From the IMG/VR virus record IMGVR_UViG_3300048575_000506, positions 1-35,299 of that record: DNA of 35,299 bases; one strand, 5' to 3'. Under the pieces are notes generated by a model. That model ran no database searches and was not told where the DNA came from. It was given only the letters and a program-made list of their open reading frames with translations. The position numbers and the translations under genes were made by a program. The DNA comes from a virus (taxonomy: Duplodnaviria; Caudoviricetes). Shown piece by piece: positions 576 to 35,299 of this stretch (the stretch's first letter is position 1; every line of letters starts with the position of its first letter).

Positions 576-3500
576 TCAGAGGGTACCCTGCCGCAGGCGG
601 AAGAGCAGACGGCGGCGGGCATAGACAAGGCCCTGAGCATACGCTTTGGCGAGCAGTTCGACCTGCGCGTCGGGCTGTGCCCGCTGGATGCGCAGCAGTT
701 CCGCGCGCACGAGCTGGGCGCGTTCCTCGCCGACCAGTTCCAGATACCGATCATATTGCCGATCCGCCAGCCGATGCTTTTCTCCGCGCTCGTCGGTCAC
801 GACGCGCGTGGGGACGCTGGGCAGGGCTTGGGGATCGAGCGTGTTTTCCCAAACCTGCCGGCCGATGGTGGCCACGAAATCGCGTGGGGCGCTCTGGAGC
901 TTCAGGATATCCAGCAAATGATAAAGGTAGGGATTGGCCCCACCCGGCGTGCGGCGGATCGGCCGCCCCCACAGGTCGCGCTTGGGGGTCAAATCATCAG
1001 TCAGGTTGAGCTTGGCTTTGACCACATTGCGGAGTGTCTGTTCTTTGTCGCCGCTGCGCAGTTCGGGGACATAGGTTTGCTGAGTGTTGCCGACCGCCGA
1101 GACGGTGTTGGGAATGGCCAGCGCCGTGACGGCCTCCAGGTAAGAGCGCTGCCAGTGATCGAAGCGGTTTTCGGCCAGCGCTTCCAGCAGCGTCAGATTG
1201 CCTTTCAGAAATGACTGTTGCAGGAGCGCGCCGCCCAGTTCGGGCAGGTTGCCGGCCAGCGCGGCGCCCCACGAGAGCGGCGCGAATGATTTACCCGCCA
1301 GCCGCGCCTCTTTCAGGTCGTGCCAATGGCGGTTGGCCATGATCGAGAGCGCCAGCCCCATGAAGCCCAGCTTGTCATATTTGGCCAGCGTGTCCCCATC
1401 GCGGAACGCCGCGTCGCCCCCCTTGAGCCAGCGAATGAGGCCCGAGAGATTGAGCCGGTTGGGCAGCAGCCCCGCATACTGCGCCCCGCGCAGTTTTTCA
1501 TCCCTGTCGGGGTCGCCCATCGCGAGCCCCAGCGAGACGAGCAGGTGCGCGGCACTCAGCATCGTCATGCCGGTCACGAGTCGCCCCATGGAGAGCAGCG
1601 CGGCGCGCCGGTTGCCGCGCGCGGCGTGATAAAGCATTTGAGCGGCGGGCAGCGGCGGGACGAGATATTGCGCCCCTTCCCAAACGATATTGAGCGGCGT
1701 TTTGACGTACGGCGCCAGCGGCGTCATGAACAGCGCGTCCAGGTAGGCGCCGAGCCACGGAATCTCGCGCACGGCGGCTTTCAGGGCATAGACGGCGCTG
1801 GCGGCTTGGTTGTCCTGTTGATAGACGGAAGCGGTGGCGCGCTCCAGCGCCAGCCGCGCGCTGGCCGCGTCGGGGCTGAGCATGAATTTCTGGAGCGCGT
1901 CGCCGGAGAGCCCGCTCAGGCGCCCCAATTCATCCAGCGCCATGGCATGCGCGGCCGTCTTGAACACCTGATCCCCGGCGGCCAGCCCCCGGAACATGAT
2001 TTCGGGCGCCACGCCGAGCGTGGCCTCGACCGCCTTTTTCAGCCGGTCGGCCAAAGGGACGCGCCCCGTGGCGTCCACCAGGTTGTGCTCCAGATTGAAC
2101 GTTTGCAGCAAGGCACGCCACGGATGGAAACCGCGCGCAATGTCGGGCATGCTTGCGCCGTCCGGCAACACGCCAGAAGGCAGCATGCGGGCGGCCTGAC
2201 CCGCGCCTCGCTTGGCACCGGCGGCCCATGCACCGGCGCCCGAGAGCGGACCTTTCACTGTGCGCGGCTTGCCCGTGGCCATGGTCAGCGTGGCATCGGC
2301 CATCGAGGCCAGCGCTTGCGCCAGCGCACGCGGCGGGCCATTGACGGCATTGCCCAGCACGTTCGCGACTTGCGAAAGCGGCGTCAGCAGGTTGCCTTGG
2401 ATAAATGCCGTCAGGTGATTGCCGAGTCTGGTTGGCGAGAGCACTTGAATCTTGAGCAACAGCTTGCGGCTGGCCAGCTCCGCCGCCAGCAGGGCGTTAG
2501 CGTGTTGCATCGCGTGGAGATCATCAAAGTTTTTGAGGTACTCAGCTTCCGCCACACGCAGTGCCGCGCGCGCTTTGAAATCGGCATCAATTAAATCCGT
2601 CAGCACCTTGCGGGCGGGCGGGGTCATGTAACGCCCCTTGCCCCTCCAATTCGCTTCGAGCATGGCCAGCAGGCCCGCCGGGGTGCTGGTCTTGATTTCG
2701 GCGAACTGGCGTAAAAGCTGCGCCACCGGCGTGCCGATGTTGGCCAGCGTTTCCACCACGTCCGCCACCGACTGGCCGCGCGCGTGGCGGCGGCTCAGCA
2801 GTTCGATGCCCGCCTTGACGGCGGCATTCTCGCGGCTCAGCACATCCTGCAACTGCCGGCGCTTGTGCTGGATCATTTGTTCCAGGTCGGCGTCGCTCAT
2901 TTGTGCCAGTACGGCATTGAGCTGCTGGTAACGTTGCGGGGCGTAATAATTTTCAGGGCTGAAGGCGATGGCCGTCTGGTCGGCGGCGAATTTCGGATCG
3001 GCGGCCATGCGCTCGGCGAAGCCGCGCGGCTGGTAATCCGCGCCGGGCTGCTGCTCGCGCGCCTCGACCCGCGCTTGCGCCAGCGGGTCCAGGTCGGCGT
3101 ACGCCATCACGCGCGCGCCGCGCTGGGTTTTTACTTCTCCGGCGGTTGGTGCTTGCGCTTCGCTTGAGCCTTGCGAGCGTTGCGCCGGGCGAACATGGCC
3201 TCCACGGCCTGATCTTCGATGGCCGAGAAATTCGAGTAATCTTTTTGTGGGGTTGTCGGGGGTTCCGCCGAGGTATTGGGGCGGTTGTCCGAAGGGGACG
3301 TCGTTGGAGTAGTGGGCATAGCTGTCAAAACCTCCTAACCTGACGAATTCATGATAAACGTTCAGGGGTTTGTTGCCTACAACATTAAAGATATAGACCG
3401 GATCGACGAAGCGGCCGGAAGCGACAAAGCGGTCGAACGCGCGCCGCACGGCCTTGTCCGCGTCCAGATGATTGAGCACCAGGTGCACTTCATAGTTGGC

Positions 3501-6500
3501 CGCCTTCAGATTGGTCAGGCGCGTCATGATCGATTTGGGATTGTCGCCCACCAGCGGCCAGACGAGATTGACGCCCTGTTCGACGGCCTGACCCGCGACG
3601 GCCGCCGCGACTTGGCTGGAGGCCTCATGCACGGCAAACGTGCCCGCCCCGCCCCGGAAATTGGCGAATTTACGTTTGGCGATATCGGAGTCGATCAGCA
3701 AGGCGCCGTAATGCTCCGAAAGCGGATCGGCGAGTGTGGACTTGCCGGCCGCCGAGGGACCAATCACGAGAAAAGCGGTTTTTTCAAATTTGAGGCCGCT
3801 GTGGGGCACGCCCCCGCCGACGCCGGGCTTGATCGCTTCTTCGTTTTTTTCCTGTTTGAGCCGCAGCAGGTCATGCACCGCGCGCCGGCGCTCCTCGTGC
3901 GTGGCGGCCTGTTCGCCCAGCTCGTTGGCGAGGCGATTCTGTTTTTCGCGTTCGGCGTAAGCCTGTTCCTTTTCCCGCTCCGTTAAAGAATCCGGGAGCG
4001 GATCGCGTTTCCCGTACTGGAACTTGGGGAACAGATCGGGCTGGGACGCGGCAGCGGGGGATGCCTGCGGCGCTCGCGGCGCCGGGCGTGGCAACTTGGC
4101 CGAGGGCTCCGGTCCGCTGAAGAAATCGCCCATGCCGGGGATACGCTCAGCCGGGCCGAGTTTGGCATTCACGCTGGGGGTGCCGACCTGATCCATGGTC
4201 GGCCGGATAAAATCGGCTTGCGCGGGTGCGCTGGCGGAAGGCGGCGCCAGCGCGGCTTGCCGATCCGTCATGATCGCGCCTAAATCATCGGCGCCGTTTA
4301 CAGCTTGTCGCGCATTTGCTGATAATGGCGGGCGAGAATCTTGTCCGGGTGATTTTCCGGCAGGCTGTCCCACCACTGATCGAACACTTCGGACGCCTGC
4401 TGCATGTCGGAGCGTAGTGATTCGATTTCGGAGGGTGTCAATTGACGCGAAGTGCCGGTAGAGGGCGGCAAGTTGTCCGTGGGTGAGGTGTCGGATGGAT
4501 TGGGCGAGGTCATAGACGGATAATACTCCTGCGAGGTTGCCAAGGCCAAATTTTTTGTCAACGCGGGCCAGCAGGTCGGCCGAGGGCGTCAGGTGCTTGC
4601 CCGACCCGGCCCACGGCGCAAAGGTGGTCGCCAGCGTCGTGGCGTCCACCACCTTGCCGCCGTGCGATTCAAGATATTCGCGTAGCGCCTGCAAGGTGGC
4701 GCCGGTGGTCGCGACATCATCGACCAAAATATATTCCTGCCCCGGCGTGACGGGACCGTCGAATTCCGGTTGGCGCAGCAGCCGCTCCAGTGGTCCGGCG
4801 TCGGTGTGCCGTGTTTCATTGGTTTGCACAATGTTAGTGACGATGGGCAGGCCGCTGAAGCGACTGGTGTATTTGGCCAGCGCGAGCGGCAGTTTGTTTT
4901 TGCCTGTCGCCTCCTGGGCGTGAACCGGCACCAGCATGGCGCGGGGATGCTGGCGGCCCAGTTGATAAGCGCGGTCGCGCTTGATCAGCCGTTGCACGAC
5001 CTGCGCCGCTGCTTGCATGTTCCCCTGTTTGGCCGCCGCATAGTCCGGGTGTGCTTTCATCGTCTGGATCAGCGTGTGAATCGTGGCGTCGGGAAAATCT
5101 TCCGGCCACGGTTCCACGGGGTAGGAGCCGCGCGGCTTTTGGAATTTGAGTTCGCCGTGGCCCGCCCAGGCGCGCAGCACATCGAGCGGTTGCGCCGCGC
5201 CCAGCAGCGAGTCTTCCCCGGCCTGCGCCTTGAAGACGAAATCGCGCAGCGCGTCGCGCAACTGGTTGGGCTTGTGCAGCACGTCGGCCAGCTTGGCGCC
5301 GATCAGCGTTTCTTCTTCCGTGGCGGGCGAAACCCAGTCTTGCGTGGCCTTCAGGTCGGCGTAAGTCCTGGCCCCCTTTTCGGCCATCGAGCGGGCCAGC
5401 CGGTAGAGCGGGCCGGCGAGGTCATAGGCGGGGGGGAGCTTGCCGCCGGCAACGGCCAGCTTGAGCCCCAAGAGGGACGGCAAGGCTTTCGTGATGCTGC
5501 CGCGCAGGCCCCGGTTTTCCTCCAGAAACCGCAACGCGGCGCGCTGCTGCGGTCCCTCGAAGGCTTTGGCCAAAAGCGCCTGTTCCAGGAGACTCTTGCC
5601 CACGTCGGTCAGGCGCCCCTGCGGGTCAACGAACACTGAGCGGTTCTGATGCGTGAAGGCGCGCGCGCGATTCATGCTGCCGACGAATTCGCGTGTCACG
5701 CGCGGGTCGCCGAGCGCCTCGCGCAGCGTCGTGTCGTCGTCCAACTCCAGCGCCGCGATACTGGCCAGCGGCACACGGCCGGCGGTCGAAATCGCCTGGC
5801 TGGTAAGGTCAAGCGCCTTGGTGCCGGTGTCATTGGCCTGGTCGGCAAACTCGCGCCAGCGCGCGCGGGGCAGGCCCGTCAGTTCGCGCACCAGCACCGG
5901 CGCGCGCATCCGCTCAATCCGCGCGCGGTCCAGCCCATACTCATCGGCGGAGCGCAGCAAATGCTGCTGGTAGGCTTGCAGCTTGGCGGGCTGATTAAAA
6001 GCGCGTTGCAACGTCATCGCGCGCCCATTGCCCGCCAGCACGTAACCTTCGGGCGTCACCACCGGCGGGCCGTTTTCCGGCCCCAGGTCGCGCGTAATCA
6101 CCAGCCGGGGATCGAGCCGCGCGGCGTTGCGCAGCACCTTTTCCTGTTCGGCCGGATCGGTTTCATAATCGCGCGGCTGCAGCTCGCGCGTGTAATCGGC
6201 GCGCGGCCGGAAGGTTTGCGCGTCATTGGAGGGGATCAGCTCGGCCGCTTCGCGCACGCGGTAGCGGATCGGGTGGTCTTCCTCAGTGTTGGGATGCCGA
6301 TAAACCGAGGCGTTGCCAAAGTCGGGGGCAGCGGCGCCCGTCACCGGGGCTACCGGTGCGGCCGGGCCGGGCGCCGGCTCCCCGCGCAATTGGCCCTGCC
6401 GATATTCGATCAGCAGCTCAGCCGCGCGCTGGCGCGCCGCTTCCAGACCGGACTCTTTGACCCACGCTTCGGCGTTGTAGGCGCGCGCCAGCCGCGACTT

Positions 6501-8459
6501 GAGCGTCTGCACCAGATTAACAAAAATGCGGGCGACGTGGCGAAAGATCGACGGCTCGCCCTGCGCCAGCCGGTCCCAAAAACGGGGGTCGCGAATCTGC
6601 TGGCCGAGAAAATCGCCCGAGAATTCGGAGAGCGCGTTGTCCAGCGACATTTGCGGCTCATCGTGGAAGCGCGCATAATCGAGGCGCAATTGGGCCGGGT
6701 CGTTGGCGTGCGTCAGCAGCGCCGCGCGCACGGCCTTGACGCGCTCGTGATCGGCGCCCAGTTCGCTCTGGATCGCTTCCCACAGTTCATGACCGACCAC
6801 AAAACTGGCCTGATTCTCCCCGCGCGCATTGATGAAGAGTTGCCCGGGCTGCGCGGGATCATAGGCGCCGTTGAAATAGGGGGCGCCTGCGGTTTGCTCG
6901 ACAAACAGCGCATTCTTGCCGAAAGTATTGGCGACTAAGGCCGCGTATTCGAGTTCGGGGCCGGCGGGTCCGCTGTAAGGTCGGAGGCTGCGGATGCCTC
7001 GTTCATAGTCGGCGGCGCGAGCGTCGCCCCGTTTTCCCGCAACAGATTGTAGACTGGATTTTTGCAGTTGGGCAATGGCTCGCCATGCTGGTCCGTCCGT
7101 TTCGGAACGTTCAGAATGACGCGGCCCAGGAACAGGCGTGGCATGGGTGGGTGCTCCTTGTGTCGGCCCTGATGCTGCCACATTTGACCCTGTTTGTTCA
7201 ACTGGAACTTGAACGGGTTCTTGCGGGCGCAGGGGGGCGGCCGGGACCGGCTGCTGAATCACGGGGGCTGGCGCCGTGGCCGGTTGCGCGGGCGGCGCCA
7301 TGGGTTGAGTGGTTGCCGCTGCCGGTTGTGCGGGTAGCGCGGGCGGTGCGGCTTTGGTCTGCGGTACCTGCGGCGCCGTTTGCGGCAGCGCCTTTTGAGG
7401 CGGCGCCGTTGTCGGCGTGAGGTGTTGCGCGAAGGCGCCCCCCGCGCCGAAGAGACCGCCCGAGAAGGCGCCAAGCACCCCCGCCTCAAGCTGTTCCTGA
7501 CGGCTGGCGCCCTGCGCGCGCGGGTCAAGTTGCTGCGCCGCAATGCCCGGCGTCGTTTGCTCAAAGGCTTCCGTCGCGCCTTCAATCGCGCCCGCCGTTC
7601 CCGCCCGCACGGCCGCCTTTTTGAACAGCCCTTTGGCCGGTTCCTTCACCACGCGGCCCGCCATCGCTTCAAACGGCAGCACGCCCCCCACCAGCGCGTT
7701 GACCACGCCCGAGCCCAGCGCCGAGGTGGCCGCGAACTGGTGCGCCTGTGCCGGTTGGTAGCCCAGGCGCAGGAATTCCTGATAGAGGTCGGGGTAGTTG
7801 CTCCCCATTTCGGAGAGGCCATAGACGGCGGGGCCGACGAGCGGCGCGGCGGGACCGCTGGCCAGCGTGGCGCCCAGCCCCACACCGGTTTGCATCATCG
7901 ACTCCGGGCCGCGCGCGGCCAGCCAGCGCGGGTCGACAAAGCGCCCGAGGTCTTGGCGCGCGGCCAGGTCGGGCGCGAGCGGATACTTTTCGCGCGCCTG
8001 CGCCTGCCCCGCCATGATCAGCGCCGCGCCGCGCTCGCTGAGCGTGGGCGCCGGTGCTTGAATCGGCACCGGCTGCCCGGCCAGTTGCACCCCCGGCTCA
8101 AGCCCCACGGGCTGTTGTTGATTCATGAACAGCCGGGGCCGCCCCGCGCCGAGCAGGGCCGAGTGCGCGGGCGGGCTGAAAATCCCGGCGGCAGCGGTGC
8201 GGGTTGCTGTCTCCGGCACCATCATGCCCGCGCCCACCGGCGTCGTGCCCGCCTGCGCCGCGCCGCGTTCAAACGAACGCCAGCCCTGGCGCAGCGTGTC
8301 GGCGAAATAGCCCAGCGGATTACCCGTCAGCGTGGGCGCGGGCGGAGTATCGAGGGGGGCTACCTGATAGCCGCCGATTTCGGCAGGCAAAGTCACCTGC
8401 GCCCCCGGCTGGGTTGGGGCATCCAGCGGCGCCACCTCATAACCATTGATTGTTGTCAT
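576..8459 (-). CDS. Giant polyvalent internal-virion/ejected protein: degenerate zincin-like, DdrB-like ParB, phosphoribosyltransferase, zeta-toxin-like P-loop kinase, helical C-terminal region
   Basis: 2627 aa. FNGAYDP...GHELWE (~6400-6950); ELQPRDY...GPPVV..GYVLAGNGR (~5570-6280); YILVDDVATTGATL (~4400-5120); GPSAAGKST...IDSD...SGRFVDP (~3290-3790); last gene of the ejection cluster. Confidence 0.85.
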   Translation of the reverse strand: MTTINGYEVAPLDAPTQPGAQVTLPAEIGGYQVAPLDTPPAPTLTGNPLGYFADTLRQGWRSFERGAAQAGTTPVGAGMMVPETATRTAAAGIFSPPAHSALLGAGRPRLFMNQQQPVGLEPGVQLAGQPVPIQAPAPTLSERGAALIMAGQAQAREKYPLAPDLAARQDLGRFVDPRWLAARGPESMMQTGVGLGATLASGPAAPLVGPAVYGLSEMGSNYPDLYQEFLRLGYQPAQAHQFAATSALGSGVVNALVGGVLPFEAMAGRVVKEPAKGLFKKAAVRAGTAGAIEGATEAFEQTTPGIAAQQLDPRAQGASRQEQLEAGVLGAFSGGLFGAGGAFAQHLTPTTAPPQKALPQTAPQVPQTKAAPPALPAQPAAATTQPMAPPAQPATAPAPVIQQPVPAAPLRPQEPVQVPVEQTGSNVAASGPTQGAPTHATPVPGPRHSERSETDGPAWRAIAQLQKSSLQSVAGKRGDARAADYERGIRSLRPYSGPAGPELEYAALVANTFGKNALFVEQTAGAPYFNGAYDPAQPGQLFINARGENQASFVVGHELWEAIQSELGADHERVKAVRAALLTHANDPAQLRLDYARFHDEPQMSLDNALSEFSGDFLGQQIRDPRFWDRLAQGEPSIFRHVARIFVNLVQTLKSRLARAYNAEAWVKESGLEAARQRAAELLIEYRQGQLRGEPAPGPAAPVAPVTGAAAPDFGNASVYRHPNTEEDHPIRYRVREAAELIPSNDAQTFRPRADYTRELQPRDYETDPAEQEKVLRNAARLDPRLVITRDLGPENGPPVVTPEGYVLAGNGRAMTLQRAFNQPAKLQAYQQHLLRSADEYGLDRARIERMRAPVLVRELTGLPRARWREFADQANDTGTKALDLTSQAISTAGRVPLASIAALELDDDTTLREALGDPRVTREFVGSMNRARAFTHQNRSVFVDPQGRLTDVGKSLLEQALLAKAFEGPQQRAALRFLEENRGLRGSITKALPSLLGLKLAVAGGKLPPAYDLAGPLYRLARSMAEKGARTYADLKATQDWVSPATEEETLIGAKLADVLHKPNQLRDALRDFVFKAQAGEDSLLGAAQPLDVLRAWAGHGELKFQKPRGSYPVEPWPEDFPDATIHTLIQTMKAHPDYAAAKQGNMQAAAQVVQRLIKRDRAYQLGRQHPRAMLVPVHAQEATGKNKLPLALAKYTSRFSGLPIVTNIVQTNETRHTDAGPLERLLRQPEFDGPVTPGQEYILVDDVATTGATLQALREYLESHGGKVVDATTLATTFAPWAGSGKHLTPSADLLARVDKKFGLGNLAGVLSVYDLAQSIRHLTHGQLAALYRHFASIDTLRNRITTLRHAAGVRSVRSVVGQPAGKSPGQDSRPPLSANARQAVNGADDLGAIMTDRQAALAPPSASAPAQADFIRPTMDQVGTPSVNAKLGPAERIPGMGDFFSGPEPSAKLPRPAPRAPQASPAAASQPDLFPKFQYGKRDPLPDSLTEREKEQAYAEREKQNRLANELGEQAATHEERRRAVHDLLRLKQEKNEEAIKPGVGGGVPHSGLKFEKTAFLVIGPSAAGKSTLADPLSEHYGALLIDSDIAKRKFANFRGGAGTFAVHEASSQVAAAVAGQAVEQGVNLVWPLVGDNPKSIMTRLTNLKAANYEVHLVLNHLDADKAVRRAFDRFVASGRFVDPVYIFNVVGNKPLNVYHEFVRLGGFDSYAHYSNDVPFGQPPQYLGGTPDNPTKRLLEFLGHRRSGRGGHVRPAQRSQGSSEAQAPTAGEVKTQRGARVMAYADLDPLAQARVEAREQQPGADYQPRGFAERMAADPKFAADQTAIAFSPENYYAPQRYQQLNAVLAQMSDADLEQMIQHKRRQLQDVLSRENAAVKAGIELLSRRHARGQSVADVVETLANIGTPVAQLLRQFAEIKTSTPAGLLAMLEANWRGKGRYMTPPARKVLTDLIDADFKARAALRVAEAEYLKNFDDLHAMQHANALLAAELASRKLLLKIQVLSPTRLGNHLTAFIQGNLLTPLSQVANVLGNAVNGPPRALAQALASMADATLTMATGKPRTVKGPLSGAGAWAAGAKRGAGQAARMLPSGVLPDGASMPDIARGFHPWRALLQTFNLEHNLVDATGRVPLADRLKKAVEATLGVAPEIMFRGLAAGDQVFKTAAHAMALDELGRLSGLSGDALQKFMLSPDAASARLALERATASVYQQDNQAASAVYALKAAVREIPWLGAYLDALFMTPLAPYVKTPLNIVWEGAQYLVPPLPAAQMLYHAARGNRRAALLSMGRLVTGMTMLSAAHLLVSLGLAMGDPDRDEKLRGAQYAGLLPNRLNLSGLIRWLKGGDAAFRDGDTLAKYDKLGFMGLALSIMANRHWHDLKEARLAGKSFAPLSWGAALAGNLPELGGALLQQSFLKGNLTLLEALAENRFDHWQRSYLEAVTALAIPNTVSAVGNTQQTYVPELRSGDKEQTLRNVVKAKLNLTDDLTPKRDLWGRPIRRTPGGANPYLYHLLDILKLQSAPRDFVATIGRQVWENTLDPQALPSVPTRVVTDERGEKHRLADRQYDRYLELVGEERAQLVRAELLRIQRAQPDAQVELLAKAYAQGLVYARRRLLFRLRQGTL
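3131..3319 (-). CDS. Overprinted +1-frame small protein (62 aa) overlapping the end of the zeta-like kinase domain
   Basis: AGGAGG at 3336-3331, 11 nt before ATG 3319; product MPTTPTTS...DYSNFSAIEDQAVEAMFARRNARK; host frame uses rare AT-rich codons here (AGG TTA GGA). Confidence 0.55.
   Translation of the reverse strand: MPTTPTTSPSDNRPNTSAEPPTTPQKDYSNFSAIEDQAVEAMFARRNARKAQAKRKHQPPEK
4298..4513 (-). CDS. Overprinted +1-frame small protein (71 aa) overlapping the end of the PRTase domain
   Basis: AGGAG at 4530-4526, 12 nt before ATG 4513; amphipathic helix LTPSEIESLRSDMQQASEVFDQWWDSL; local GC dip. Confidence 0.6.
   Translation of the reverse strand: MTSPNPSDTSPTDNLPPSTGTSRQLTPSEIESLRSDMQQASEVFDQWWDSLPENHPDKILARHYQQMRDKL
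6935..7144 (-). CDS. Overprinted +1-frame small protein (69 aa) just upstream of the zincin-like domain
   Basis: AAGGAG at 7159-7154, 9 nt before ATG 7144; product MPRLFLGRVILNVPKRTDQHGEPLPNCKNPVYNLLRENG...; local GC dip. Confidence 0.5.
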   Translation of the reverse strand: MPRLFLGRVILNVPKRTDQHGEPLPNCKNPVYNLLRENGATLAPPTMNEASAASDLTADPPAPNSNTRP

Positions 8460-13236: not shown

Positions 13237-14025
13237 TCAGCCTTTCATTTGACCGCTGGCCAGCGCCAAATCCTGCATCACCAGCTCGCGATCCAAACCG
13301 TTCAAGGCGGTTTGAATAGCTTCCAGCCAGTCGCGCGCCCCCTCGCGGTTGCGGTAACTGACCTCCAGGTGATAGGCGGCGGCCCAGCTAAGGATTTCGG
13401 GATATTGTTCAGTCCAAAAACTGCAATCGCAGTCCTGCACCAGTTGCGGGGGATAGAACCAGCCGACGACTTCAAATGTGCCGGGCGCATCCGTCGCCCG
13501 GTCCAGCACAATACCCCCCTGATGCCAGGGCGAGCCCAGCAGCGCCCCACCCATGCCGCCGCGAAAATCCAGCCGCGTTTGCCACTGGTTGGCATCGGGC
13601 GAGGCTTGCAGCGTGAGCGGCGCCCAGCGCGTCGGCGTGCCGCGCCCCTGACTGGCCACACTGGCCACACTATTGATGGGCGGGACCAGCCCCGCGTCCT
13701 CGCGCGGACCCGCGAGGTCCGCCGCCCCCGGACGCAATTCATCCTCGCGCGCGGGGGCAAGCTGGCGGCGGGATGCTTCAGTCACGAACCAGACTTCACG
13801 CGCCACGCGCAGGTCGGGCACGATGAAGTAATAACAGCCCGCCGGCAGGCGCGCCCAATGCCGCGCACACGCGCGCGGCGTCAGTTGCAGATTCTCCAGC
13901 GTGCGCTGCCCCGCATTGATCAGCCAGCGCGCCTGTCGCGCCCCGGCCTCATCGGCCGCGAAATCGGCGCGCCCGGTCATCTCAATGAACTGTTTCACCA
14001 CGGCCGCCAGCGGCATCGGTTGCAC
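13237..14025 (-). CDS. Head-tail adaptor
   Basis: N-terminal INAGQRTLE and C-terminal FWTEQYPEILSWAAAYHL motifs typical of adaptors; follows the capsid gene. Confidence 0.7.
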   Translation of the reverse strand: MQPMPLAAVVKQFIEMTGRADFAADEAGARQARWLINAGQRTLENLQLTPRACARHWARLPAGCYYFIVPDLRVAREVWFVTEASRRQLAPAREDELRPGAADLAGPREDAGLVPPINSVASVASQGRGTPTRWAPLTLQASPDANQWQTRLDFRGGMGGALLGSPWHQGGIVLDRATDAPGTFEVVGWFYPPQLVQDCDCSFWTEQYPEILSWAAAYHLEVSYRNREGARDWLEAIQTALNGLDRELVMQDLALASGQMKG

Positions 14026-14040
14026 TCGCTTTCAAGTTAT

Positions 14041-14068
14041 GGGCGGGTGTGCGCCGGCACCCCGCCCC
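14041..14068 (-). terminator. GC-rich hairpin after the capsid stop
   Basis: GGGCGGGTG...CACCCCGCCC imperfect inverted repeat just after the stop; no clear U-tract. Confidence 0.35.
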
Positions 14069-14080
14069 GTACTACAGGGC

Positions 14081-15227
14081 TCAGCTTTGCAGGTTGTCCG
14101 CCCCGACCCCTTGCAGGTAGCCCCAGCCCAGCGGATGATGGAATTCGAGCCCCGCTTCGGTCAGGTATTCCTCGATAATCCCGTCGATCTGCTGGGCGTC
14201 GCCCCCCTTCAGCATGCGATCATCGGCCTTGAACAGCGTGTCATCGATGTAGCGATACACGAGGTTCTCCGGCTCAAAGATCATCAGCGCGTGCTGCATC
14301 GTCGCTTCCTGATTAAAGAGCGGATGCGTTTTCAGGTAGAGCGTCCCCCAGGGCGTGATCCATTCGGCCACCTTGATCCCGAAGGCCGGCGCCTTGACCT
14401 GCAAGTTGATCTGGCCATAGGCTTCGGCCAGCTCGTTGATCCCCAGCAGCGCGCTGTTGCCGCAGAAGCACAGCTTTTCGGACTTCCCATAAAGGAAGAT
14501 GTCCTTCAGGCGATGATTCAGCCAGTGCCGCCCCGCCTCGAGCCACGTCTTGCCGCGATAAGCGGCGGCGCTTTCCAGCCGGTAATCGGCCACATTCTGG
14601 CTGGCCGCCTGCAAAATGGCATTGCGCAGGCCCCCGGTGGTCCGTTCAGGCTTGCCGTTCGCCCCGGCGTTCTCGCTGGCCGTGCCGAACAGAAAGGCCC
14701 ATTCCATTTCCACCGAGTGAATCTCGGCGGCCTCGCGCTTGGCTTCCTTGCGCGCATTCGTGGTGCGCAGCCGCGTGCGCAGGGCCGTGCGCGTCAGCGT
14801 CAGCGGCGTGCGGAAGATCTGGGTATAGTTGTTCCATTTGCTCGGATCATTGAGCAGCGCTTCGGGCATCGTGGCGCCTTCGGCGTTGATGTTGCCGACG
14901 CGCAGCGCCGTATCGACATCACTCAAGTTCTGGCTGGGGCTCTTGAGCGGCCCGGTCGAATTTTCCAGGAGGCGCGCCGCAAGGTACGAGTTTTCACCCG
15001 CGCCCCCTTTGGTCAGCACCTTGGCGTTGGTATCGACGCGAAAATCGCTCGACGAGCGCAGCAGCACCTGATGGCCGACGCGGAACATCGCCGCCGCGCC
15101 GGCGGCCAGCTTCACATAGACCGTCACGCCGGCGGCCTGATTGGTCGCCTCCGTGGCCAGCGCGGCATCGGTAAAAATGCCCGCCACCGGCACCGATTGC
15201 GCCGGAAATGCTTTCGTCCACCAATTG
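14081..15227 (-). CDS. Major capsid protein, exon 2 (SU10/DUF5309-like)
   Basis: NYTQIFRT, EMEWAFLFG, RTTGGL and EAGLE motifs; frame open from 15227 (C AAT TGG TGG ACG AAA). Confidence 0.9.
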
Positions 15228-15809
15228 CGCGTGGACCCCTGCGGCTTTCACCACGGGCCAGACTTTATCTTCACCCCTTCGGGGGTGCGGCGTGCAGAGT
15301 CGTTGAGGCAGCAAGCAGCCGGGTTTGTTTCAGCGCGTCATTAAAATACGCGCCCGCGCTCAGCAGTGAACGGAGCCCCGGCACGAGCGTGAAGGCGCTG
15401 CGGTAGCCGCGCGGAGTGGCCTTGATCGGCCCCACGTGGATGCCGAGCCGTTGCATCAGCGCGGCGGTTTGCTCCACCAGCGCGCGGCGCGTGTGCGTAA
15501 ACCCGACGCGCCAGCGCCCGCCCTGTTCATGAATCCAGCCCGCTTCATCCAGCAGCGCCGCCAGCGCCAGCAATTGCTCGCTGCGGTGCGCCGTAAAGAG
15601 TTCCGCCGGCAGCTCGCCGGGGGACTCATAACGGGCAGCGGCCCGCGCGCGCGCATAAGGTGAACCGTGCATTTGCTTGCTTTCCCTGCGGATTGCCCAT
15701 TGTGACATCCCGTGCGCTGTTCCTCTCAGGGGGCACGGGCTTTAGGGGGTTCCCGCATATCTCGCCGTTGTTTTGCCCCGGGTCTCGCCGGGGGGAGTCC
15801 AGTTAGTTA
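15228..15809 (-). ncRNA. Group I self-splicing intron (582 nt) in the major capsid gene
   Basis: P AUAUGCGGGAA (15760-15750), Q AAUCCGCAG (15694-15686), R CUCAACGACUCUG (15307-15295), S AAGAUAAAGUC (15271-15261); P1 GGAGUU/GACUCC with U-G at the 5' splice site; terminal G at 15228; P9 GAAA loop. Confidence 0.93.
15271..15672 (-). CDS. Intron-encoded degenerate/half LAGLIDADG endonuclease or maturase
   Basis: ALAALLDEAGWI...VGFTHTRRALVEQTAALMQRLGI resembles one LAGLIDADG domain; starts in L6 between the P6a arms GCAAGCA/UGCUUGC; alternative ATG at 15708. Confidence 0.65.
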   Translation of the reverse strand: MHGSPYARARAAARYESPGELPAELFTAHRSEQLLALAALLDEAGWIHEQGGRWRVGFTHTRRALVEQTAALMQRLGIHVGPIKATPRGYRSAFTLVPGLRSLLSAGAYFNDALKQTRLLAASTTLHAAPPKG

Positions 15810-15967
15810 AACTCCGGATCATCGACCTTTTCAGATTTAAGTCGGCCCAGCATCGCCGTCAGCGGTGCCTGCCCGTTGGGCCAGAGGTAAAGAATCCCCT
15901 CGCGGAAATTCTTCGGGCGTTCGTCAGTGACCCAATCGCCCGTACCACGCATTCCTAGAAACGGCAT
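15810..15967 (-). CDS. Major capsid protein, exon 1 (52 codons + 2 nt)
   Basis: AAAGGA SD, then MPFLGMRGTGDWVTDERPKNFREGILYLWPNGQAPLTAMLGRLKSEKVDDPE; the unspliced frame stops at 15803-15805; missed by the ORF track. Confidence 0.9.
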
Positions 15968-15984
15968 CTCGCGGTTTCCTTTCG

Positions 15985-16938
15985 TTAGTTAATGAGGTCT
16001 GCAATCATTTGTTCCCGCGCCGAGAGCGGCGTGGGTTCGGGCACGCGCCCGCCCGAAGGGCGCGCAAAGGCGGGCCGGCGCCCTTCACCGGCGGGGGCGG
16101 GCGGCGCGGCCATCAACGGTTTTTTGGCCAGATTCAGCCCCGCGCGCGTCGCCTGTTCGGTTTCCGAGAGCACCTGTTCATAAGACCAGTCGGGGTGCCG
16201 CGCTTCAATTTGCGCGCCCACGAACGTCACGTAATCCAGATGCGGCAGCAGGTCTTGATTGGCCTTGAAAAAATCATGCGCCAGTTGGTTGACATGCACC
16301 TGATGCGCTACCTGGGCGTGAATCGTGCGCGGCAGCTCGCGCAGGATTTCCTCGCGCGTGCGCTGCTGGATGCGCTCCGCAATGCGCGCGAACGTTTCGG
16401 GATGCGCCAGCAGCGCTTCATATTCCCCCGGCGCGATCAGCCCGCCGGCGGACGGCGCCGTGTCTGGCGCCGTGTCTGGCGCGGGGGGCGCGGCCGGTTT
16501 GGTCCGCGCTTCGCCGCTCATCCGCGCCGCAAGCTGCGTCAATTGTTCCGCCAACTGCTGATTTTCGGCGCGCAGCGCCGTCACATCCACCACGGCGGCG
16601 GGCTCCGGCATGGCTGCCGGTGCGGGGTCAACCGGGGTTTGGGCCGGGGGTGCCCCATCAGCGGGCGCCGCAGTAGCGGGCGCCGCATTCGCGGCGGGCG
16701 TATCCGCCGTCATCGGCTCGGCTTCCGGTGCAGTTTCGGCAGCGACCGCCTGCAAAGGCGCCGCCTGCAAAGGCGCCGTTTCGTCCGGGGCCGTCGCGGC
16801 CGTCGCCGCTTCAATCGGTTCGGCGCCCACCGGCGCCGCCGCGCTTGCCGAGGGTGGCTCCGCCACCGTCGGCGCGCCGCGCCATGCCGCCAGCGCGTCA
16901 TCCGCCAGCAAATCCAGTACCATCGCATCCTCAGCCAT
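15985..16938 (-). CDS. Capsid scaffolding protein
   Basis: Ala/Pro-rich N-terminal half, coiled coil and C-terminal short helix; lies between portal and capsid genes. Confidence 0.75.
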   Translation of the reverse strand: MAEDAMVLDLLADDALAAWRGAPTVAEPPSASAAAPVGAEPIEAATAATAPDETAPLQAAPLQAVAAETAPEAEPMTADTPAANAAPATAAPADGAPPAQTPVDPAPAAMPEPAAVVDVTALRAENQQLAEQLTQLAARMSGEARTKPAAPPAPDTAPDTAPSAGGLIAPGEYEALLAHPETFARIAERIQQRTREEILRELPRTIHAQVAHQVHVNQLAHDFFKANQDLLPHLDYVTFVGAQIEARHPDWSYEQVLSETEQATRAGLNLAKKPLMAAPPAPAGEGRRPAFARPSGGRVPEPTPLSAREQMIADLIN

Positions 16939-17179
16939 TGCTTCGCTCCTCGTGTGCGTTCAAAATTTCAAGTTGGGTCCGGGGGAGTTCCAGCACGTAA
17001 TGCAGCGCCTTGATCTGGCCGCGCAAAAACGCGTCGAATTCAGCGCGGGTTTCAAACTCGCTCGGCCGTTCAATGTTTTCCAGCAGCAGCCGATTGGCCG
17101 CCAGATTCTCCGCCAGTTGGCTCGCGACAAACTGCCATTCATCACCGGCTAAAAAGCGTTCCATGCCGAGACTGGTCAT
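16931..17179 (-). CDS. Small hypothetical protein after the portal
   Basis: 82 aa with LRGQIKAL helix; overlaps both neighbours. Confidence 0.7.
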   Translation of the reverse strand: MTSLGMERFLAGDEWQFVASQLAENLAANRLLLENIERPSEFETRAEFDAFLRGQIKALHYVLELPRTQLEILNAHEERSNG

Positions 17180-19134
17180 GCCGCCGCCTCCAACTGTTCC
17201 GCCGGAACCAGATTGCCCGCCGCAAGTTGCCCCGCCACGTTTTCATCGGGCAGCACCATCGGCTTCAGCTCAAAGTCTTCCAAGTTCTTGGCCCCCGTCA
17301 GGCGCGCAATGTGTTTGATGATCCGCGCCGAATCGAACTGCGGCGCCGCCAGCGGATTACTGGTAATGATTTGCAGCACTTGCAGCCACGCATCGACCGA
17401 TTCCATCCCGGCCATGCTGGAGCCGTCATTCACCACCACGTCATAATTGGCGTCGAGCTGATCGGGGCGCACCAGCAGGTAAGGCGAGGTCATGTTGTAT
17501 TCCGCCGCGAGGCGCTCCTGCCAGCGCCCCGACAGCTTGACCCACGTCTCCGCGCTCATCAGTTGGCGCGTCTGGCTGGCCAGCATGAACCCCAAATCCT
17601 GCATCGCCTGCATGCCGACCACGCGCGCCGTCTTTTGCAGGCGCGACAGGCCCGACGTGCGCGCCCCCTTGACTTCTTCCGCCGTGCGCCGCTCGCCCGA
17701 CTTGGCGCGGATAATGCCCTGCATGATGTCGGTCGCGCCGCTCGTCTCGCGCAAGAGTTCCGTCAGCGTCATCGCGTCCTGAATGTGCTGGGTCGTTACG
17801 TCATGCGTGTTCAATTGTTGAATCGCGTCCTTGATGCCGCGTCCCCACGCATTGGGGCGCAGGCGAATCAGTTTGCCCTCGCTCGGATTTTCCAAATCAT
17901 ATGAATTCACCAGTTGCGGGTCATAGACGATCATGTCGTTCAGCACCTTGCGCACATTCGCAATATGCGAGGCAAACAGCCAATCAACCGTCTCCTGCAT
18001 GCCGTAGATGACTTCCAGACGGCTGATCGGCATCAGCGAGCGGCCATCGTAATCGGGCGCCGCCACCGCCAGCGGAAACAGGTTGTGGTCCAGATTGAGC
18101 GGCTGCGCCTGAATCACCGTTTCATCCCCGGCGACGGCAAAGAGCCATTTCTCCGGGTACTCGCGCGGCCCCAAACCCCAGTCCTTGGGGATCAGGTTGA
18201 CGTACATGTAGATCGTATCGACCGGATGCGTGAGATTGCCCGCCTGCGGCTCACGCGCGCCGCCGAGGCCAAAGCGCTCCAAATCGGGGTCCATCCGCGT
18301 CGTCACGCTCGTGCGGTTGGGCTTGCCTTTTAGGCACCGGCAGTTGAACAATCCGCTTTCGCGGTCGCGCTCGCGCGCGAGCAGGTCCATCAGGTTCTCG
18401 CGCGCCAGCCAGCCGACAAACTCCCCGGCCTGCACGTCGTGCAGCGGTACATTGGGATCGGGCAGATATTTATAAGGGTCGATGTTCAGCAGGCGATTGC
18501 CTTCAAACATCACGTAATCCACCACCGACCGCTTTTTCGTCGTCGGCACAAACCGCTGCACCATCGACCAGAAGCCGTCGGTGCGCCAGACCGATTTCTG
18601 CCCCATCACGCGCGACCAGACCGGCGCGATGACGCCGAAGCCATACGCAAAGGCATCGCGAAAGAAGGTATGCAGCGCGAGCCCGTTTTTCAGCCGTTGG
18701 CATTGCTGGTCGATCACGTGCTCATACATGATCGCCGGAATCGCATCTTCCGGCCCGCTGCCTTCGTAGCGGAAATAGGGGCGCTCCAGAAAGACCGTCG
18801 TCATATAGGTCAGCAGCGTTTCCAGCGCGGCAAACGAGACCGGCACCACGATCCGTACCGGTTTACGCGGGTCGGTCTTTTTCAGCGCGCGCTCCGCGTC
18901 GTCCAGCGGCACAAACGCCGTCAGCGTGCGGTCAATCAGCCGCCATGAACTATGACGCGGCTGCATCGCGCCGCAACTGGCGCGCGCCCGCTCGGTCACG
19001 GCGCTGACAATCCGCTGATGCAGCGGCGAGCCGGGGCGCAGGTCCAGCCCGGCGGGATAGTCATAACCCGCTTGCGCCACCGCGCGAGCCGCGCCCGGAT
19101 CAACATAATCGGCCCCGCTCACCACGTTCGGCAT
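17176..19134 (-). CDS. Portal protein
   Basis: 652 aa; DAFAYGFG, SGATDIMQG and RRTAEE motifs of P22/SU10-type portals. Confidence 0.9.
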   Translation of the reverse strand: MPNVVSGADYVDPGAARAVAQAGYDYPAGLDLRPGSPLHQRIVSAVTERARASCGAMQPRHSSWRLIDRTLTAFVPLDDAERALKKTDPRKPVRIVVPVSFAALETLLTYMTTVFLERPYFRYEGSGPEDAIPAIMYEHVIDQQCQRLKNGLALHTFFRDAFAYGFGVIAPVWSRVMGQKSVWRTDGFWSMVQRFVPTTKKRSVVDYVMFEGNRLLNIDPYKYLPDPNVPLHDVQAGEFVGWLARENLMDLLARERDRESGLFNCRCLKGKPNRTSVTTRMDPDLERFGLGGAREPQAGNLTHPVDTIYMYVNLIPKDWGLGPREYPEKWLFAVAGDETVIQAQPLNLDHNLFPLAVAAPDYDGRSLMPISRLEVIYGMQETVDWLFASHIANVRKVLNDMIVYDPQLVNSYDLENPSEGKLIRLRPNAWGRGIKDAIQQLNTHDVTTQHIQDAMTLTELLRETSGATDIMQGIIRAKSGERRTAEEVKGARTSGLSRLQKTARVVGMQAMQDLGFMLASQTRQLMSAETWVKLSGRWQERLAAEYNMTSPYLLVRPDQLDANYDVVVNDGSSMAGMESVDAWLQVLQIITSNPLAAPQFDSARIIKHIARLTGAKNLEDFELKPMVLPDENVAGQLAAGNLVPAEQLEAAA

Positions 19135-33617: not shown

Positions 33618-34016
33618 ATGACGCTGCCCCCACCGGTGGACATCACCTACTTTGCCGCCATCCTGCGCCAGATCATGGACACTCACGCGCTCACGGTCGC
33701 CAAGTTGGCCATCAAGCTCAAGGTCTCGCGGCAGATCGTCTATTACTGGCTCGCCCCCAAAACCATCGCCCATCTGCCCGGCGCCAAGAAATTTCCCCTG
33801 CTCTCCAAGCTGTCGGGCATTTCGGTCGAAGAACTCAAACAGCGCAACGCCTTTTTGCGCTTAAGCCTGCACGGCATCATTTTTACGGAAGATGTTTTGA
33901 CCAAGCTGGTGCTGACCCCCGATGAAGGCGCCGTCCTGCAATTCATGCGCCAGGGCGATTACGTCAGCGCCATGATGTTGTTATGCAAATTACTCCGAGG
34001 AAGGAACCCCGTATGA
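33618..34016 (+). CDS. CI-like XRE HTH repressor
   Basis: AAGGA SD; LTVAKLAIKLKVSRQIVYYW HTH; no S24 peptidase domain. Confidence 0.75.
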   Translation: MTLPPPVDITYFAAILRQIMDTHALTVAKLAIKLKVSRQIVYYWLAPKTIAHLPGAKKFPLLSKLSGISVEELKQRNAFLRLSLHGIIFTEDVLTKLVLTPDEGAVLQFMRQGDYVSAMMLLCKLLRGRNPV

Positions 34017-35299
34017 AATGGATCAAGTTGGAGGTCGAGAAGCACGTCACCATTTACCGGTGCGAAGCGGATACGCGGCTGTTTATGTTGCGCTGGCGCG
34101 ATTTGAGCCTGCCCAACCAGAGCAAGGATGCCAAGCAGCGCGTAAAGGGCAGCCTTGTGGACGCGCGCAAGCGTGCCCGCGAGATCGCCAAGACGCTCGT
34201 GCAGGGGCGCGGGCAAGAACTGGTCGAATCGCGCAGCAAGCGCACGCCCGAGCTGGCCGAAGGCGTTGAAAGTGCCATTGCCGGCCTTGCGGCTAATGTG
34301 ATGACCAAACGCCAGTATGGCAATCTGATCAACCATTTTATCCGCTGGCTGAATGTGAATTACCCGCGCGTGCGCTTTTGGGGTCAACTGCGGCCCGCCA
34401 TGCTGCTTGAATTCCGCGCATTTCTTGAAGCGCAAAACCTTGCTTATGATACCGTTCGCTTGCGCATCGCCGCCGTGAGGCGTGCATGGCGTATCCTCTA
34501 TCAGAATCAACCGGCGGATATTCTGCCGCCCCCGCGTGTTGAATTGAAATCGGCGGCGACAAAACCTGTTCAATGCCTGATAGGCAGTGATCTTGTGGCC
34601 TACCTTGATTTCCTCAAGGCGCAATACCCAACCGAATATGCCATCGCCTGTCTGCAAGCGCTGGCGGGCTTACGGCTCTATGAGGCCGCTTATTTGCGGC
34701 GCCGCGATGTAAATCTGAAGCTGGGTTTGATCAACGTGTGTGATACGCCGGACCACACATTGAAAAACAAAGCCAGTCGCCGCATTCTGCCGGTCTGTAC
34801 CGAGGTGCTGGACGCTTTGCGGCCTATCATCGCTCAAGCAAGCGATTCCGAGTTGCTTCTTGTTTCGCCCGCAACCGGCAAAGCCTGGAACTGTCTGGCG
34901 CTTTCCGCCCACTTCCATGACATCCGCTGCAAAGCAGCCAAGGCGACCGGCCGCCCCACAATCAGGAATACGTTTCAACGCAAGTTGCGCGCGAGCTTTT
35001 CCACGCTCACTTACCAAATGGAATTGAGCGAAAAGTTACGTCAGCTCTACATTGGGCACAAACAGGAAACCATCATCAGCCAGCACTACGAAGAAACGCG
35101 CGAACAGCTCAAGCAGCAGATCGAGCGCTTAAGCGTGATCGCCAAATCCATGAATGGCTGGCGTGATTTCGTGGAGCTTCAGGAAAAAAAGAAAGTCCAG
35201 CAGGCCGAAACGAATTTTGGAAACGTTTTGGAAACTTGGCTGCTGGGTGAAACCGATAGCATTGAAAATAAAGAGTTTATGACGGGGGCGTCCGCGTGA
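34013..35299 (+). CDS. int: Tyrosine recombinase/integrase
   Basis: SAM-like domain; GLRLYEA, LKNK, RKLR, IGH and QHY catalytic pattern; ATGA-coupled to the repressor. Confidence 0.92.
   Translation: MKWIKLEVEKHVTIYRCEADTRLFMLRWRDLSLPNQSKDAKQRVKGSLVDARKRAREIAKTLVQGRGQELVESRSKRTPELAEGVESAIAGLAANVMTKRQYGNLINHFIRWLNVNYPRVRFWGQLRPAMLLEFRAFLEAQNLAYDTVRLRIAAVRRAWRILYQNQPADILPPPRVELKSAATKPVQCLIGSDLVAYLDFLKAQYPTEYAIACLQALAGLRLYEAAYLRRRDVNLKLGLINVCDTPDHTLKNKASRRILPVCTEVLDALRPIIAQASDSELLLVSPATGKAWNCLALSAHFHDIRCKAAKATGRPTIRNTFQRKLRASFSTLTYQMELSEKLRQLYIGHKQETIISQHYEETREQLKQQIERLSVIAKSMNGWRDFVELQEKKKVQQAETNFGNVLETWLLGETDSIENKEFMTGASA

Follow-up and report, generated by a model that had tools for sequence, protein, structure and literature searches.

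The 35,299-base provirus record analyzed here (the window) contains genes for a terminase, an SU10-type portal, a capsid protein, a primase and an integrase, and its major capsid gene is interrupted by a sequence with the appearance of a group I intron. The locus raises the questions of whether this interruption is an intact ribozyme, whether capsid production depends on it, and how it came to lie in this gene. A preliminary description had assigned the DNA to a temperate phage, and this assignment held, the record being a provirus with an integrase. Only one capsid gene was found. The protein encoded within the intron was also recorded on a 441-kb contig, which fits integration in a host. At the right end of the window lies the gene for the tyrosine integrase (33983-35299, plus strand) and at the left end (1-561) a signal-peptide-like gene that is probably of host origin; a tRNA search found none. 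The virion/ejection region includes a gene (576-8459, minus strand) for a 2627-aa protein with ddrB-like ParB, phosphoribosyltransferase and Zeta-toxin-like kinase domains, which we take to resemble polyvalent proteins. All features of the window described below lie on the minus strand.

Exon 1 of the capsid gene (15967-15810) comprises 158 nt, or 52 codons plus 2 nt, and its final U belongs to the U.G pair of helix P1, while exon 2 (15227-14081) comprises 1147 nt. The 582-nt intron between them (15809-15228) has a GC content of 66%, is preceded by U and ends in G. When we joined the exons at these coordinates, a single 434-aa open reading frame containing DDPEFNWWTK was obtained, just as had been proposed. 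Exon 2 matched SU10_MCP (PF17236) with an E value of 1.2e-25 and 91.1 bits against a cut-off of 24.1, identifying the product as an SU10-type major capsid protein, and also matched phrog_1328, major head protein. Upstream of the capsid gene lie the genes for a terminase (phrog_38) and an SU10-type portal (PF23899), giving a terminase-portal-scaffold-capsid order that is found likewise in OP947158. The nearest capsid protein in GenBank, that of Desulfofustis phage LS06-2018-MD01 (42%), is annotated as an unbroken single gene. A scan of positions 13900-17200 for promoters and terminators found none.

Capsid homologues were drawn from the best 80 of at least 544 viral matches, the best 80 of 265 metagenome matches and 35 genome matches, and were clustered at 95%. 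In the first homologue search, six of nine loci were continuous across the junction site and three were split there. The preliminary description had called for an alignment with intron-less homologues, and this bore out the junction: among the matches listed, 24 of 116 intron-less clusters read DDPEFNWWT exactly, and the spacing at the junction was unchanged in 114 of the 116. The position of the junction is therefore fixed, because homologues read across it. Among 38 in-frame U/G pairs near the junctions that we tried as alternative splice pairs, only 15810/15227 gave DDPEFNWW. Exon 1 was 62 to 77% identical to the N-terminal exon of intron-bearing homologues, and its columns in the capsid alignment were better conserved than those of exon 2 (0.78 versus 0.66). 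Exon 1 thus appears to be needed, and capsid synthesis in the window must, judging from this conservation, depend on splicing of the predicted self-splicing intron, as had been suggested; the unspliced capsid mRNA encodes merely a 54-aa peptide. A capsid start within exon 2 (GTG at 15193) was ruled out, exon 1 being conserved among homologues.

We located in the intron all of the helices that the preliminary description had named. P1 (15815-15810/15799-15794) holds the 5′ splice site and the internal guide sequence, with U15810.G15799 as the splice pair, and P10 forms between 15807-15800 and exon 2 through seven of eight pairs. The in-frame TAA said to follow exon 1 was present, but in the P1 loop (15805-15803), after codons for F and N, and not at the junction itself. 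Next come the P2 hairpin (15793-15788/15781-15776), a P3 of 5 bp (15767-15763/15292-15288) and P4 (15757-15752/15692-15687). The earlier list had overlooked P5/P5a (15748-15696), along with a 145-aa LAGLIDADG-like reading frame. The 5′ strand of P6 (15686-15685) is part of the 5′ core half (15767-15685), and an 8-bp P6a stem (15681-15674/15317-15310), which includes the pairs 15680-15674/15317-15311 drawn previously, closes an insert of 372 nt. The 3′ core half (15308-15260) supplies the 3′ strands of P6 and P3 together with P7 and P8 (15287-15282/15277-15272), so that the P3-P7 pseudoknot core with P4, P6 and P8 is present. The remainder (15259-15228) forms P9.0 and P9, the latter with a GAAA loop (15249-15246), and ends in G15228. 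P7 itself (15301-15298/15264-15261) is joined by A15303-U15260, and its guanosine-binding pair, G15301-C15261, is in place next to the bulged C15302, where relatives have A; the last P7 pair is a C.A mismatch, seen in one of 12 introns, and to this extent the P7 drawn earlier was imperfect.

A separate observation concerns the AT-rich 9-mer TTAACTAAC, which occurs only twice in the window (63% GC), at 15992-15984 and 15810-15802. One copy lies where the putative scaffold gene stops, immediately ahead of the ribosome-binding site of the capsid gene, and the other spans the 5′ splice site; the duplication may be due to chance.

Covariation within the intron family upheld the claim of an intact group I core. 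Across 12 aligned introns, pairing was found in 60 of 60 cells of P3, 72 of 72 of P4, 71 of 72 of P7 and 71 of 71 of P8. Shuffled partner halves reached the observed score in 0 of 5000 cases for P2, P3 and P8 and in 20 of 5000 for P7, counts that are not probabilities, as the 12 introns are related; for P4, which is nearly invariant and hence uninformative, 382 of 5000 did so. RNAalifold recovered P2, P4, P5 and P5a with double changes in 12 of 20 pairs, and P7, P8 and P9 with double changes in 12 of 21. Compensatory changes were seen in P2, P3, P4, P5a, P7, P8 and P9 across 15 related introns, and P3 was fully paired (5/5) in 16 of 16 introns despite varied sequences. Two such changes are private to the window intron: in P4 a U-A pair has become G-C, and the first pair of P7 has gone from G-C to A-U, accompanied by a bulged C in place of A. 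The U.G splice pair and the terminal G were present in all 16 introns of the family. On this comparative evidence, we assign the element at 15809-15228 to the group I introns, with its core intact.

The covariance-model check that had been proposed did not succeed at the gathering score. RF00028 matched the 3′ half of the window intron with 22.9 bits (E 0.0023) against a cut-off of 50, and 11 of 13 relatives matched weakly, at 25 to 36 bits. Rfam at gathering score returned 0 matches over the whole window, with no aptamer or other RNA family. RF00028 is known to miss split and phage introns (PMC11878797 and PMC6125680). All 16 introns have an in-frame stop no more than seven codons past the 5′ splice site, as PMC3073962 describes for most group I introns. 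A scan of the window with model R1, filters off, revealed no second intron. Subgroup IA, including IA2, the usual phage type, is defined by the extra helices P7.1/P7.2 between P7 and P3, and the T4 td intron is of subgroup IA2, with P7.1/P7.2. In all 16 introns examined here, the gap from the P7 GACU to the 5-bp P3 strand is only 4 to 5 nt, leaving no room for P7.1/P7.2, and the window intron is not of subgroup IA2. It is also without P5abc, and by elimination of these helices and from the P/Q/R/S consensus, our guess is that the intron is IB-like.

Both ends of the reading frame in the P6a loop (15708-15271) extend into the ribozyme core, and the frame encodes only a second LAGLIDADG domain. 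In relatives, the P6a-loop frames encode two-motif LAGLIDADG proteins of 220 to 250 aa, and the loop insert is 611 to 670 nt long, compared with 372 nt in the window. The 145-aa protein aligns to domain 2 of these proteins only, and domain 1 is absent. Its motif is LAALLDEAG, versus LAGLFDTDG in relatives, with Ala at the position where 25 of 27 aligned rows have the Asp of the second motif, the catalytic residue in I-CreI-type enzymes. The other row lacking this Asp is P0002, a 177-aa protein that is also without most of domain 1 and reads through the P7-P9 region of its intron. Six of seven relative frames tested passed the Pfam LAGLIDADG_3 cut-off of 22.5 bits, and the window protein scored 16.6. 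Active LAGLIDADG enzymes have either two motifs or a single motif that forms homodimers, each with a catalytic acid, and the window protein does not conform to this. DNA cutting by the 145-aa protein is very unlikely because domain 1 and the second-motif Asp have been lost.

The protein nevertheless retains the marks of a coding sequence. Its predicted fold (AF2, pLDDT 87) is a single alpha-beta-beta-alpha-beta-beta-alpha LAGLIDADG domain, and all nine Foldseek matches at E ≤ 0.001 were PI-SceI entries. The GC contents of the three codon positions (0.73/0.54/0.78) are coding-like, and an open frame of this kind arose in 6.7% of base shuffles. A search for relatives of similar length returned only the protein itself, and the best identity among representatives was 45%; locus searches gave no match with P0002 and one distant match with P0008. 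The full-length enzyme of the relative L016 was modeled with a pLDDT of 91.9 and matched PI-PfuI and I-DmoI at E values of about 1e-10. Matches of the family enzyme in GenBank phages (H21-H26) lay only inside genes annotated as helicase or terminase. Together with the best fold match being the intein enzyme PI-PfuI, this placement hints at an intein-type origin of the enzyme.

The distribution of the intron bears on its mobility. In capsid-driven searches, 10 of 126 capsid clusters (about 8%, among the matches listed) had an intron at this spot, and introns farther downstream are under-counted because the searches favor genes with an unbroken exon 2. These counts exclude L082 and L272 (which have an intron at codon 28/29), loci that fell below 40% identity or failed to span the site, and contigs present in duplicate; L262, whose contig ends, was left out of both the capsid tree and the prevalence count. 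On a 133-row capsid tree (FastTree), the 15 intron rows implied 14 changes, versus 14.4 for shuffled labels, and such scattered presence would fit the pattern of a homing element, as it is described in PMC3984707. Empty, near-identical alleles were found for two intron-bearing loci, L016 (L098 and L100) and L024 (L108 and L111). Between L016 and the empty L098, 38 differences fell in the bins spanning −200 to +99 relative to the site, followed by a single difference over the next 1.9 kb beyond +99. This mismatch tract looks like a co-conversion tract; given further mismatch islands at about −1000 and +2600, it may also be ordinary mosaicism. We looked for the family in other genes by scanning 91 loci with R1 (72 more distant endonuclease relatives, L344 and 18 pattern matches without a capsid gene) and found only L272, again in the capsid gene (codon 28/29), and a weak L239. 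The contig that L272 shares with L082 has, at L082:2064-2922, a related intron with a two-motif LAGLIDADG frame at capsid codon 28/29.

The explanation that we favor, with a probability of roughly 0.7, is that a group I intron, likely self-splicing and likely brought in by homing, sits in the prophage capsid gene as a decaying homing element whose LAGLIDADG gene has been truncated and is likely inactive. Translation would run through exon 1 and end at the TAA seen in the P1 loop. From the predicted structure and the known chemistry of group I introns, guanosine would be bound by the core at the pair G15301-C15261, the RNA would be cleaved at U15810, and this end would then be joined to C15227 through P10, restoring the 434-aa capsid frame indicated by homology. 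In relatives, cleavage of empty alleles by the two-motif enzyme, at the conserved codons for DDPEFNWW, would allow the intron to be copied into them, a step that we infer because the distribution is patchy and the site is flanked by the mismatch tract. After the loss of domain 1 and of the second-motif Asp, the window intron is likely immobile, with the homing cycle in its decay phase, and the ribozyme would stay under selection because the capsid gene needs splicing. One aspect does not fit well with this reading: an intact remnant frame of 145 codons, with coding-like GC and a confident fold, is poorly matched by long neutral decay.

Of the alternatives, the one that survives best, although we regard it as unlikely, is that the half-LAGLIDADG protein has been retained as a maturase aiding the folding or splicing of the GC-rich intron. 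The frame runs unbroken between an ATG in the P5 region and a stop in P8, agrees with that of P0008 at both ends (WAIRRE versus WAISRE; TLHAAP in both) and is predicted to fold as one LAGLIDADG domain, and P0002 is truncated in the same manner, without most of domain 1 and the same Asp. Many maturases are LAGLIDADG proteins that have degenerated (PMC3073962), and Thermotoga provides a bacterial example of a LAGLIDADG maturase (PMC3984707). However, an in-frame deletion is expected by chance in 1 of 3 cases, and the nearest relative of the protein, at only 45% identity, is too distant for a selection test. Moreover, L023 and L248, the nearest introns at the DNA level, use another start frame, which stops after 24 codons in the window; the Shine-Dalgarno-like GAGGA lies 12 nt from the ATG; and the locus search found no DNA locus for P0002.

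A further feature of the family is where it inserts. Among the matches listed, capsid-, endonuclease- and pattern-driven searches yielded 16 distinct introns including that of the window, and these occupy four sites within seven bases of one gene, each site holding the same intron family. With the window site as 0 (window, L002, L023, L097 and L248), the others are −1 (L059, L074 and L246), +1 (L008, L016, L024, L106 and L262) and +5 (L090, L209 and L263). Each of the 16 introns has its own U.G pair and terminal G and a P1 and P10 matched to its own exons; P10 in the relatives comprises three to eight pairs that track each one's own exon (the guide of L246 was set by eye). A tree of the intron core built without the guide sequence required three changes for the four sites, which is the minimum, whereas shuffled labels averaged 9.1 and 0 of 200 shuffles were as low. 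The core tree also rejected a single clade for the site-0 introns (p-AU 0.018, or 0.021 without the long window row), and the endonuclease tree gave 5 site changes, versus 9.0 when shuffled. On these trees, which are unrooted and without an outgroup, the sites are most simply explained if site 0 is the ancestral one, from which the others were derived.

Splice-site sliding is a plausible route between the sites, with re-insertion as the alternative, because the first bases of the intron resemble the start of exon 2 and both would pair with the same guide. The more elaborate proposal, that the family slid from a likely ancestral site 0 by −1, +1 and +5 nt, re-matching P1/P10 and keeping one enzyme family, and that the window enzyme was cut down to a dead single-domain maturase needed for capsid synthesis, seems doubtful to us as a whole. 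If true, the sliding reading would make this a case of natural intron sliding in a group I ribozyme. The literature covered, with subscription papers mostly outside it, held no description of this intron family or of one group I family at adjacent sites. Haugen and Bhattacharya, in 2004, reportedly described LAGLIDADG genes spreading to neighboring rDNA sites, and the adjacent-site point may therefore already be published.

The preliminary description had suggested that splicing could gate capsid output, the intron acting as a regulatory switch. Capsid synthesis would indeed have to pass through splicing, as the unspliced mRNA yields only the 54-aa peptide, and C. difficile has a group I intron under riboswitch control (PMC3984707). 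Against this, the intron is missing from 116 of 126 clusters among the matches listed and from near-identical alleles, its distribution tracks mobility and not host ancestry, relatives encode a homing endonuclease, Rfam detects no aptamer or RNA family in the window at gathering score, and the capsid intron of phage LittleE is spliced, with an efficiency presumed to be high in PMC3706429. We consider such a switch very improbable and did not retain this part of the preliminary description.

Least credible of all is that the intron is splicing-dead in a defective prophage with a capsid pseudogene, since the C.A mismatch in P7, the long window branch in the intron trees, the broken endonuclease gene and an estimated completeness of 36% for the provirus record are opposed by the compensatory nature of the window's own P4 and P7 changes and by the open frames of both exons (exon 2 with a high GC3 of 0.82), portal, terminase, primase and integrase.

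The decaying homing element thus favored is a selfish element of an already known type and adds one more example to the published capsid-gene introns; less ordinary is the occurrence of one family at four neighboring sites. In practice, exon 1 is lost by gene callers, and the entire family escapes RF00028 when its cut-off is applied. The 16 introns at four adjacent sites, the empty near-identical alleles, the full enzymes and the half enzyme form a natural series, which opens tests in phage of how position changes (by sliding or re-insertion) and of enzyme decay versus a maturase fate.

Several known systems share parts of this arrangement. The enzymes more common in phage introns are GIY-YIG, HNH, PD-(D/E)xK and EDxHD (PMC3984707), and in Bastillevirinae most introns belong to IA and carry HNH enzymes, a LAGLIDADG enzyme being present in one case (PMC11878797). 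The td intron of T4, with I-TevI, resembles the window intron in that the endonuclease frame lies in the P6 loop and extends into P6a and P7 and that an in-frame stop lies past the 5′ splice site (PMC3073962). It differs in having a GIY-YIG enzyme and in residing in a DNA-metabolism gene, whereas the window enzyme is LAGLIDADG-type and P7 is followed directly by P3. Archaeal IB4/IA3 introns likewise carry LAGLIDADG frames, one of them in P6, and are missed by RF00028 (Nawrocki et al. 2018, PMC6125680); they reside in rRNA genes, whereas the window intron resides in a capsid gene.

The preliminary description had presented phage introns in structural genes as the less common kind, which overstated their rarity, since capsid introns have been published for LittleE, Tuc2009 and crAss-like phages (PMC3706429 and PMC7886860). 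Splicing of the LittleE capsid intron was demonstrated by RT-PCR and N-terminal sequencing (Pope et al. 2013, PMC3706429). LittleE, also temperate, resembles the window in that its major capsid gene contains a group I-type intron, preceded by U and ending in G, with a LAGLIDADG-like frame. In contrast to the window, LittleE is a siphovirus, its intron is about 820 nt long and its frame lies on the opposite strand; in the window, the P6a frame is on the sense strand and is a truncated descendant of a two-motif enzyme, and the capsid gene is SU10-type. LittleE was not among the matches when the full-length family enzyme was compared with 50,697 phage records. A group I intron also lies in the capsid gene of the lactococcal phage Tuc2009, as cited in PMC3706429, and in the major capsid protein genes of crAss-like Delta and Zeta phages (Yutin et al. 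2021, PMC7886860). These introns were identified mainly through endonuclease domains, and the Zeta genes contain up to four inserts each, whereas the window has one intron. Tuc2009 and the crAss-like Delta and Zeta phages belong to phage groups other than that of the window, and what all of them have in common is a major capsid gene interrupted by a group I intron.
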